From the NCBI GenBank assembly GCA_045541115.1, contig JAZQIM010000021.1, positions 34,775-98,774 of the forward strand: a stretch of DNA of 64,000 nt. Reading direction: 5' to 3'. Shown piece after piece: positions 33,900-35,031 of the stretch. The translations under genes and the position numbers were made by a program. Under the pieces are notes generated by a model, which had not been told where the DNA came from, did no database searches, and was given only the letters and a program-made list of their open reading frames with translations. The DNA is from Candidatus Aphodoplasma sp. GTDB taxonomy: Bacteria; Bacillota; Clostridia; UBA1381; UMGS1253. Each line of letters opens with the position of its first letter. Within the stretch, counting starts at the first letter, position 1.

Positions 33900-33971
33900 T
33901 CAATTTTTGAGATTGAATATGGATTATTTATCAGACATCTTTATCCCTTGTGTTCGACGGGGAGTTACGGG

Positions 33972-34000
33972 TTGACACTGGGAGGAGTTTGTGGTATATT
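33972..34000 (+). promoter_or_regulatory. promoter-like motif copy A
   Basis: TTGACA-ctgggaggagtttgtgg-TATATT (17-nt spacer, TGTGG extended -10). Confidence 0.45.
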
Positions 34001-34006
34001 GTTTTT

Positions 34007-34078
34007 GGAAGTTTTCTGAGAGTTTTGAGCGCCTCCCTTCGGGGAGGAAGAGCCCGTACTCGGAAAACTTCTTTTGTC
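34007..34078 (+). ncRNA. candidate ~70-nt small RNA downstream of motif A
   Basis: 10-bp outer stem GTTTTCTGAG (34011-20) / CTCGGAAAAC (34059-68). Inner CCTCCC-TTCG-GGGAGG hairpin (34032-47). Then TTCTTTTGT. Confidence 0.3.
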
Positions 34079-34199
34079 TAAAAGACCGACATTATATATC
34101 GTATTAACATTACTATTTTTACCGACATGATTATCGATTTTGTCGTGCATCTTTTTAAGTTTTTGCGACATCGTCGTTGCGATTGGCAACGGTTGTAGA

Positions 34200-34228
34200 T
34201 TGACAGACTGCCCAGGTTGTGGTATAGT
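34200..34228 (+). promoter_or_regulatory. promoter-like motif copy B
   Basis: TTGACA-gactgcccaggttgtgg-TATAGT. Confidence 0.45.
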
Positions 34229-34353
34229 AGTGGTAGGACTTGAACTGTTTTCAGGAGCGGTGGATACGGATTCCATGTCGGCTGAGTTAGCAGGTATCAA
34301 GTCCATTTCTTTTATTATAGGAATAACCATTAACCGTTGGCAATGGTTGCGGG

Positions 34354-34382
34354 TTGACAGACTGCTCAGGTTGTGGTATAGT
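34354..34382 (+). promoter_or_regulatory. promoter-like motif copy C
   Basis: TTGACA-gactgctcaggttgtgg-TATAGT. Confidence 0.45.
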
Positions 34383-34509
34383 AGTGGCAGAAGACACAGA
34401 TTCCTTCGATGCGAGCAACGAATTCTTTTTGTTGACATCGCTGGCGTTGGAATTTATGTCTTCTTTTTTTATTTATGGCATCCATTGCGTTTAGCGGGAG
34501 TTTTGCGGA

Positions 34510-34538
34510 TTGACAGACTGCTTAGGTTGTGGTATAGT
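34510..34538 (+). promoter_or_regulatory. promoter-like motif copy D
   Basis: TTGACA-gactgcttaggttgtgg-TATAGT. Confidence 0.45.
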
Positions 34539-34725
34539 AAATATGGGGTCTTTGGTAGCTTCCATCTCGGACAATTGTAGTCCGTTGACGGGAAGATTCT
34601 GAAGACTCTTTTTTTGTCTTCGTACAACAAATTTCCCATTTTTTTGTTTTTGAATAAAAGAAGAAAAATTCCTGCGTCTATATATACTTGCGACATCGCT
34701 GTTGCAACTGGCAACGGTTGTTGGC

Positions 34726-34754
34726 TTGACACCAGGGAGAATTTGTGGTATAGT
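34726..34754 (+). promoter_or_regulatory. promoter-like motif copy E
   Basis: TTGACA-ccagggagaatttgtgg-TATAGT. Confidence 0.45.
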
Positions 34755-34879
34755 AGAAATAGGACTTGAACTGTTTTCAGGGGCGCTAGGTGCTGGACCT
34801 AGGTCGGTCGAGTTAGCGGATATCAAGTCCATTTCATTTATTATAGGAATAACTATTAACCGTTGGCAATGGTTGCGGA

Positions 34880-34908
34880 TTGACAGCCTGCTCAGGTTGT
34901 GGTATAGT
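34880..34908 (+). promoter_or_regulatory. promoter-like motif copy F
   Basis: TTGACA-gcctgctcaggttgtgg-TATAGT. Confidence 0.45.
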
Positions 34909-35031
34909 AGTGGTAAAACCAATGTCTGTTGGCGATGCGACTACACTTGTTTAAGTTGTAGCTACCGCCGTTTCAGCATTGGTTCTACTGTTTTCATAGA
35001 CAAACACGCTTTCGTCAGGGATTTATATTTC

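Follow-up and report, generated by a model that had tools for sequence, protein, structure and literature searches.

What could six nearly identical promoters be for, when they follow each other in the same direction within about 1 kb of DNA that has no credible gene? The question is raised by an array on the + strand of a 64-kb stretch of Candidatus Aphodoplasma DNA (the window). For this array an earlier note, made from the letters alone, had offered four roles: a multi-promoter small-RNA locus, an RNA polymerase/sigma sink, a transcription-driven insulator next to the tRNA-Pro gene, or the residue of a decayed repeat-protein gene. The small-RNA locus proved to be the best supported of the four, since a hairpin and a U-rich tail follow every promoter and unit C belongs to a structure-conserved RNA family. 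The array is probably a set of six stand-alone small-RNA genes that go back to cis-antisense RNAs in the toxin gene of a prophage.

In the mechanism proposed here, a near-consensus sigma-A promoter with an extended -10 would drive each hairpin RNA of 65-78 nucleotides (nt), the hairpin starting at or beside the predicted transcription start, and the host RNA polymerase would constitutively make short, stable hairpin RNAs of about 70-90 nt. These RNAs would be complementary to the linker-coding parts of the toxin/polyvalent mRNA of a related prophage, and the antisense pairing might lead to cleavage of the duplex or interfere with transcription or translation. The action would take place in cis inside the prophage gene and possibly in trans from the chromosomal array. 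The array itself is a decayed fragment of such a gene for a phage-type multi-domain ('polyvalent') protein, in which the protein reading was lost and the six promoter-hairpin-tail units stayed intact. The transcription, the termination and the antisense function of the units are what we infer from the sequence.

Six promoters and the hairpins behind them

The six 29-nt motifs described in the earlier note were all found on the + strand, as promoters A (33972-34000), B (34200-34228), C (34354-34382), D (34510-34538), E (34726-34754) and F (34880-34908). The intervals given for their starts (228, 154, 156, 216 and 154 nt) were correct, and so was the TGTGG at the end of every spacer. Each motif consists of TTGACA, 17 nt and TATAGT, except that promoter A has TATATT; promoter E carries an A-type spacer. 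When the criteria for a sigma-A promoter with an extended -10 were applied to the letters only, TTGACA, the 17-nt spacer and TG at -15/-14 were present in six of six, with 11 of 12 consensus matches in each. The promoter pattern occurs nine times in the window against 0.03 matches expected from shuffles, and six of the nine lie inside the 1 kb of the array; TTGTGGTATAGT, with at most one mismatch, is confined within the 64 kb to the six array sites. The two diverged tandem units that had been proposed hold in part: about 230 nt are duplicated (34163-34392 and 34688-34918, 86-88% identity), the B hairpin and C promoter corresponding to the E hairpin and F promoter, whereas hairpins A and D, as well as C and F, are unrelated sequences.

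Behind every -10, at a distance of 4-8 nt, an imperfect self-closing hairpin of 65-78 nt begins and is followed by a U-rich tail in all six units. Since the 3' arm of the hairpin runs into this tail, it probably doubles as an intrinsic terminator. RNA A (34007-34080, hairpin 34007-34072; all six RNAs are on the + strand) has the closing stem GGAAGUUUUCUGAG/CUCGGAAAACUUCU, an apical CCUCCC-UUCG-GGGAGG and the tail UUUGUCU, and its folding energy is -30.9 kcal/mol (z = -2.8). In RNA B (34236-34316) the hairpin spans 34236-34304 (GGACUUGA...UCAAGUCC; z = -3.55) and the tail is AUUUCUUUUAUU; its paralogue, RNA E (34762-34842), has a hairpin at 34762-34830 and the tail AUUUCAUUUAUU, and the B/E family shows three compensatory and three wobble changes among 23 pairs. 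RNA C (34383-34474) forms a hairpin at 34389-34464 with z = -5.6, ahead of the tail UUUUUUAUUU (34465-34474). In case of RNA D (34545-34620) the hairpin at 34545-34609 has G.U pairs in its stem (z = -3.85) and the tail is UUUUUUGUCU, while RNA F (34912-34998, hairpin 34912-34989) ends in the weak tail GUUUUCAU.

Compared with dinucleotide shuffles, the folding z-scores of the six hairpins range from -2.8 to -5.6. Several stems use G.U pairs, and in 12 of 15 units folding is more favourable for the + strand than for the complementary one. The tails of A, C and D have 5-9 T per 10 nt and those of B, E and F are interrupted runs; a scan with a consensus terminator missed all six on account of their long, irregular stems.

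Other kinds of elements were also considered for the array. Small peptide genes on the + strand were rejected: the sole ATG with a weak ribosome-binding site is in unit B and is not kept in E. With respect to a type I toxin-antitoxin system, no conserved small open reading frame (ORF) with a start codon is common to the paralogous units, the ATG of B being lost in E. Arrays of clustered regularly interspaced short palindromic repeats (CRISPR) are expected to have repeats of 23-50 nt and unique spacers of similar short length (about 26-72 nt), and the locus does not fit, as repeats of 29-54 nt recur every 154-228 nt, self-complementary hairpins lie between them and B and E are paralogues. The starts of RNAs B and E (AGTGGTAGGACTTGAACT; 34229-34246 and 34755-34772) match the complement of the tRNA-Pro 3' end/T-arm (35080-35097) at 15 of 18 positions. 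A tRNA-like origin of B and E was rejected and the match was treated as chance, since ARAGORN and Rfam show no tRNA there and no T-stem can form. Two promoter-like sites were seen on the minus strand just past the B and E hairpins (34343-34314 and 34869-34840; TTGCCA-18-TATAAT, 11 of 12 matches). They are composed of 'PLP' codons (TTGCCA) and an AT-rich tail, and would transcribe back across B and E, giving convergent sense/antisense pairs.

A second array and the gene of origin

Six more promoter-hairpin units were found in locus L130, from the Oscillospiraceae metagenome-assembled genome SIG449 (SVKA01000016.1), where they lie beside Asp23 and spoIIIA genes, in another genomic context, in the order F, A, F, D, a new type G, and B. 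The loci of the pattern scan are fixed 8-kb tiles, and the L130 array may extend upstream of its tile. Between the window and L130 the hairpins A, B, D and F are 81-97% identical, while the stretches between units are not alignable. RNA A is 96.6% identical to L130:173-230, with one compensatory change from U-A to C-G, RNA D is 93% identical to L130:582-654, and RNA F is homologous to L130:14-125 and L130:340-480. The promoter variant in front of a given hairpin type differs between the two loci, and on the minus strand of L130 stops interrupt all frames. At L130:474-655 the D-type hairpin begins about 80 nt past its promoter, behind an extra hairpin (GGUGCUUUUGCCGUCAGGCACC). Comparable 5' insertions were seen in the type-C units of two loci described below, L179 and L183, and the units thus tolerate extra stem-loops between promoter and core.

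Wider searches with the promoter gave little more. The pattern TTGACA-N12-TTGTGGTATAGT had more than 120 single chance matches in GTDB genomes, which were uninformative, and narrower patterns returned L130 and L159 together with a single chance promoter (L131), and nothing more. With the AT-rich motif, metagenomes gave nothing, and IMG/VR gave nothing or chance matches (L180-L182).

Hairpins of types A, B/E, D and F occur only in the window, L130 and L179/L185. When pair changes were counted over 119 pairs in five hairpin families, 89 pairs were invariant, 7 showed compensatory changes on both sides, 16 were kept as G.U on the + strand and 7 were broken, about 5 of these 7 being A.C, which is pairable on the minus strand. 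This pattern is suggestive, though drawn from few and close sequences.

The origin of the units was indicated by Candidatus Aphodoplasma SGB_3046 (loci L159, L179 and L185), in which units of the array type lie antisense within a protein-coding ORF. In L179 this ORF encodes, in order, an LPD3-like domain, a linker rich in Ser and Thr that ends in TTIPQPKQSVNPQPLP, a mini-domain of 55 amino acids, a second such linker and an ADP-ribosyltransferase toxin domain (ADPrib_exo_Tox, PF03496, E = 1.9e-8). The minus strand of the array is homologous to the linkers of the L179/P0013 protein, with tblastn values down to E = 1.5e-14. RNA F is homologous to the antisense of residues 21-77 of P0013, RNA E has exact 21-nt stretches in common with the linker of the L179 toxin gene, and exact matches of 19-22 nt were found between array RNAs and the L179 gene.

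Remnants of coding sequence lie between the units. The spacer at 34081-34199 matches, on the minus strand, the mini-domain between the two L179 linkers ('PLPIATxMxQKLKxMHDKIDN...'), this remnant giving 69% identity over 48 amino acids by tblastn (34091-34234, minus strand, E = 1.5e-14). In the second spacer (34621-34725, minus strand) the 3' part, 34688-34721, duplicates 34163-34196 and is likewise a coding remnant. The end of the upstream domain is encoded at 35022-34852 of the minus strand. A sequence at 34997-35029 of the + strand (TAGACA-21 nt-TATATT), which takes the place of an A-type promoter in L130, was considered as a decayed seventh promoter and rejected, since on the minus strand this stretch is a remnant of the end of the upstream protein domain ('..PDESVFVYEN'). 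The minus-strand reading across the six units is broken by at least two frameshifts and at least three in-frame stops, and the window contains neither an intact LPD3-like domain nor a continuous polyvalent/toxin ORF; unit C stands alone. Because the linkers and the domains are homologous and the frame is broken, the array is derived from such a toxin gene and is non-coding now.

In light of this ancestry it is possible, though not likely, that the array is a pure fossil, a decaying linker fragment of a prophage polyvalent/toxin gene in which the inherited features have no function. The homology of the minus strand to the L179/P0013 protein, the domain-coding remnants between the units and at the right end, the broken reading and the absence of the island from syntenic relatives, hence its recent acquisition, are all in line with it. 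Moreover, B and E are 14% divergent, and at that distance only about 2.4 losses at hexamer positions are expected per promoter pair; since so few losses are expected, the survival of six intact promoters is a weak test within the window. However, promoter, hairpin and tail survive in all 12 units of the two non-coding arrays although spacers and frames there have decayed, which weakens the fossil explanation. Furthermore, the hairpin types sit on different promoter variants in the two genomes, all with consensus hexamers and 17-nt spacing, and the sole weakened copy (TACAGT, TGTGA) is in the polyvalent-gene remnant of L185, outside the stand-alone arrays.

The ancestry proposed earlier was thus borne out, with tblastn values of E = 1.5e-14 to linkers of the toxin protein and a broken frame. 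Of the case that the earlier note had set against its own proposal, that of a gene fragment whose motif is missing elsewhere, only half was found: the decayed-gene ancestry is there, but the motif also occurs in the non-coding array of L130 and the antisense promoter is conserved in itself.

Several observations weigh against six functional small-RNA genes. As the array is a decayed gene fragment, its features could have been inherited and not be under selection at present. No target gene for the RNAs lies within the 64-kb window. The simple terminator scan called none of the six units, B, E and F end in weak U tracts, and a strand as rich in G+T as the + strand is by itself prone to fold better. 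For types A, B/E, D and F there are just 2-4 close sequences, with little change in their pairs, and type C is the only one with demonstrated deep conservation and strong covariation. The family is also rare, with two arrays and about nine distinct type-C sequences.

The relatives of the parent gene point to mobile elements. The LPD3-like domain recurs in a protein of 1713 amino acids on an IMG/VR phage contig (L183), and three homologues gave weak LPD3 matches that cover nearly the full profile with E = 0.0015-0.019, below the cut-off of Pfam. Among GenBank phages neither the array DNA nor the LPD3-like domain found a match, and among PLSDB plasmids the LPD3-like domain found none. The L185 locus (JAZUQZ010000029.1) lies between Tex and tRNA-Thr/Asp. 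At L185:9560-9900 a partial tRNA 3' half and a C-terminal fragment of a tyrosine integrase (..LLGHSNYETTMNIYTDFDRTKID..) stand beside the truncated polyvalent/ADP-ribosyltransferase gene; since these adjoin it, the locus is a decayed integrated element. An ORF of 84 amino acids at L159:658-912 (about L185:11474-11728), which begins at the end of the ADP-ribosyltransferase domain and matches phrog_33375, is a candidate immunity protein, and in that assembly the toxin ORF has no stop codon at the start of this ORF. Two assemblies of the one species differ in a homopolymer of 7 (L185:10715-10725) versus 8 T (L179, about 205-215), which shifts the frame of the polyvalent ORF. At L187:687-744 and L188:2219-2276 (+) a very strong GC hairpin of 16 bp, ahead of a T tail, stands between two ORFs of a GC-rich polyvalent-gene remnant; its match to FinP was sub-threshold (27.8 bits, E = 0.09), and an ordinary terminator is the likeliest reading.

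In addition, L179:440-700 contains an E hairpin and mini-domain unit between identical 54-nt promoter repeats, and this unit is absent from L159/L185, which reflects either recombination at the repeats or collapse in assembly. This difference bears on the idea that the units work at the level of DNA, as single-strand origins/promoters (sso, Frpo type) or as recombination sites that shuffle toxin modules. The parent gene comes from a phage or mobile element, and the 54-nt promoter repeat in several linkers of the AT-rich lineage, the swaps between hairpins and promoters and the loss of the L159/L185 segment between repeats suggest recombination. The TAGCG of the type-C hairpin may resemble the CS-6 motif of ssoA. 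Nevertheless we find a DNA-level element very improbable. The -35 and -10 stand side by side in ordinary duplex geometry, outside any stem, unlike in Frpo/sso. Nothing nearby is complementary to the promoter segment, and the inverted repeats reported were just the tRNA terminator and a weak pair at a distance. Six origins crowded into a chromosomal island of 1 kb are implausible as well, and recombination cannot be the general role, since genes of the GC-rich homologues contain a unit or two each and lack repeated DNA.

Conservation of the antisense promoter and of the unit C RNA

The distant homologues bear on whether the promoter is only a shadow of the coding sequence. In those with an LPD3-like domain and 56-63% GC (L183/184/196, L186, L187-190, L193-195 and L197) a sigma-70-type promoter lies antisense to the linker just past the domain. 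Its spacer is always 17 nt, and it takes the forms TTGACA-TATAAT (three distinct sequences), TTGACA-TATACT, TTGACG-TATCAT, TTGACT-TATACT and TTGCCC-TATAAT; in all, nine distinct homologues of up to 63% GC keep the 17-nt spacing. No other promoter-like site occurs on either strand of the 5.1-kb phage gene of L183. In pairwise comparisons of 20 distinct 29-mers the difference per site is 0.65 for the spacer against 0.08 for the -35 and 0.15 for the -10, and third-codon positions differ by 0.12 within the hexamers and by 0.64 outside them. A second, different antisense unit was seen in L188 behind another LPD3-like domain (524-400, minus strand), with TTGACA-17-TATACT, AGAGGUAG...CUACCUCU and then UUUUUUGUC; the peptide of this unit (..GRQKRGS...SIADFLNIVN) resembles that of unit D (..RRQKKS...TIPQPKQSVN).

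The promoter could be a coincidence of codons if 'TIPQPxQSVNP' were a functional linker peptide, for example a pre-toxin or processing motif. A similar peptide does occur past the LPD3-like domain in the distant homologues (SIPQTSPGVNPE, IIPSPGDGVNIEY, MIPQTGEGVKGEF). However, genes of 57-63% GC still use ATA for Ile and GTC-AAY, which give TTGACA-17-TATAAT on the other strand. The amino acids vary (T, N, I or S before Ile; S, G, L or F before Val) while the third-codon bases of the hexamers are fixed, and in L183 and L188 the peptides differ (PIIADTSAKGNTQ and SIADFLNIVN, respectively) with the promoter geometry retained. The encoded peptides therefore change while the hexamer nucleotides persist. 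Together with the hairpin described below, whose pairs covary between distant codons, these data make a purely protein-level feature improbable, and the evidence from these alignments points to the antisense promoter being more than a by-product of the coding sequence.

Downstream of the GC-rich antisense promoters lies a homologue of unit C that ends in UUUUGUAU, the antisense of the conserved 'EIQK' codons at the domain end. An alignment of seven sequences, the window sequence among them, was made with a structure specified by hand and was the basis of the covariance model R1. In this alignment 92.6% of the cells pair, compared with 50-62% when the partners are slid, 12 of 32 pairs change on both sides and none of 500 shuffles reaches this. 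With nine sequences the share of paired cells is 90.5%, compared with 48-60% in the controls, and double-sided changes are seen in 14 of 32 pairs; these counts lean towards the R1 structure, since the alignment was fitted to the model. Over both alignments 0-1 of 500 shuffles matched the counts of double-sided changes. R1 found the held-out L197 (E = 7e-21) and L179/L185 (E = 6e-10), and nothing else was significant in 363 kb. On the window it matched 34383-34473(+) with 70.3 bits (E = 6.5e-17), with the promoter upstream at a 17-nt spacer and the 3' U tract present.

Read on the mRNA strand, the conserved G.U pairs would turn into C.A mismatches, and the structure is thus assigned to the antisense strand. 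Moreover, the closing stem covaries across codons about 25 residues apart, and this is not explicable by selection on the protein. The simplest reading of 'PPPA(R/K)T' and 'IPxxxxGVN' in the protein is that they are shadows of the RNA stem and of the promoter. The type-C RNA family, which is conserved between distant bacteria, appears to be undescribed: the GC-rich homologues gave nothing relevant in Rfam at E <= 1. A scan of IMG/VR with the GC-rich type-C core returned the same two contigs and six chance matches.

The small-RNA reading could be carried further. The stand-alone arrays may represent a domesticated, RNA-based immunity, in which a captured antisense library silences the polyvalent/toxin gene of phages in trans, the promoter repeat serves as a recombination handle for hairpin 'cassettes' and, more generally, conserved antisense RNAs in polyvalent linkers shape apparent peptide motifs. 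We regard this as a speculative and rather unlikely extension.

The island and its likeness to known systems

The array and the tRNA-Pro gene together form an island of 1.3 kb (about 33910-35237). On its left is a DUF362 gene (32685-33845, minus strand), and the flanking tRNA-Pro and terminator described before were confirmed, as tRNA-Pro(GGG) at 35073-35148 on the minus strand and its terminator, with 19-bp arms, at 35032-35071. The DUF362 neighbour is present in six genomes of the Candidatus Aphodoplasma group (Clostridia) with 60-79% amino-acid identity, and the C_GCAxxG_C_C neighbour is also common to the relatives that extend far enough (L122 and L125). Between these two neighbours the six syntenic relatives have no array and no tRNA-Pro; the island is therefore lineage-specific. 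The content of the slot varies: tRNA-Pro and the array in the window, a gene of an AraC-family regulator in L122 (4996-5928) and about 16 bp in L125 (5918-5934).

As had been claimed, there is no credible coding sequence in the array. None of its ORFs has a Pfam or PHROG family, and the longest, of 157 amino acids on the minus strand, has no homologue, its sole match among 5.8 billion proteins being itself. Exact-protein look-ups of this ORF and of the neighbouring genes in the window gave no record. The + strand is markedly G+T-rich (its GC skew reaches +0.27), and this accounts for the long minus-strand frames without stops. Rfam 15 gave nothing within the array at E <= 10, and the only significant match in 33500-35500 was tRNA-Pro, outside the array.

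This setting bears on the proposed RNA polymerase/sigma sink and on the insulator beside tRNA-Pro. Six strong, co-oriented promoters within 1 kb do face a strong terminator and a tRNA gene. However, the units also occur singly inside phage genes, those of L130 stand beside unrelated genes with no tRNA, and the syntenic relatives do without the island. Each unit has, in addition, its own conserved hairpin, for which neither role has a need. Both suggestions found no support and are barely credible.

If the units are transcribed, they would represent a family of structured antisense RNAs that has not been described before and that resides in the linkers of giant polyvalent proteins of phages, including one protein that ends in an ADP-ribosyltransferase toxin. 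The conserved 'protein motif' (IPxxxxGVN, PPPA) is better explained as the shadow of an opposite-strand promoter and RNA stem, which calls for caution in the annotation of disordered linkers. The six-gene arrays raise the question whether bacteria retain just the regulatory RNAs of a decayed prophage gene, against related phages. The units are also a source of very compact, near-consensus Gram-positive modules of promoter and predicted terminator from uncultured gut Clostridia.

The earlier note knew of no described system with this layout, and our search of Rfam and the literature likewise gave no match. The parent gene resembles the polyvalent proteins of phages and conjugative elements, with their LPD domains, which were reportedly described by Iyer and co-workers in 2017: it encodes a very large multi-domain protein (1713 amino acids in L183) with weak LPD3 matches and a toxin domain. 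The window differs in that it holds linker-derived DNA with a broken frame and no intact domain. Antisense RNAs in such genes did not appear in our literature search, which found no paper linking the two.

Three groups of small RNAs come close in their organization, and none shares a sequence relationship with the units. Type I antitoxin RNAs are found in prophage remnants, for example SR4/bsrG and ratA/txpA of B. subtilis. Like these, the units are predicted to give constitutive antisense RNAs that belong to a prophage toxin gene, and decayed prophage regions lie beside tRNA genes. In contrast, the toxin here is no small membrane peptide: it is an ADP-ribosyltransferase domain at the C-terminus of a large protein, and its probable immunity gene encodes a protein. 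The RNAs overlap linkers and not the 3' end or the ribosome-binding site of the toxin ORF, and the window has no toxin ORF.

OOP of phage lambda is an RNA of about 77 nt with a constitutive promoter and an intrinsic terminator, antisense to the 3' end of cII, and it acts via RNase III. The units are similar in that each would give a short structured RNA (about 70-90 nt here) from its own sigma-70-type promoter, with a putative terminator hairpin, antisense inside a phage gene. They differ in opposing an inter-domain linker of a giant multi-domain protein, in that several different units are possible per gene, in leaving 'shadow' peptides (IPxxxxGVN, PPPA), in forming stand-alone six-unit arrays and in having no relation to OOP by sequence or in Rfam.

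The arrangement in tandem is closest to that of LhrC1-4 in Listeria and PrrF1/2 in Pseudomonas, which are sibling small RNAs, each with its own promoter and terminator. In both cases several small-RNA genes stand head-to-tail, in about 1 kb of intergenic DNA, each with a promoter and a terminator, which are predicted ones in the array. However, the LhrC and PrrF siblings are almost identical to one another, have seed motifs in common and stand under a regulated promoter, whereas in the array similar promoters precede five different hairpins and the units stem from the antisense strand of a mobile-element gene.

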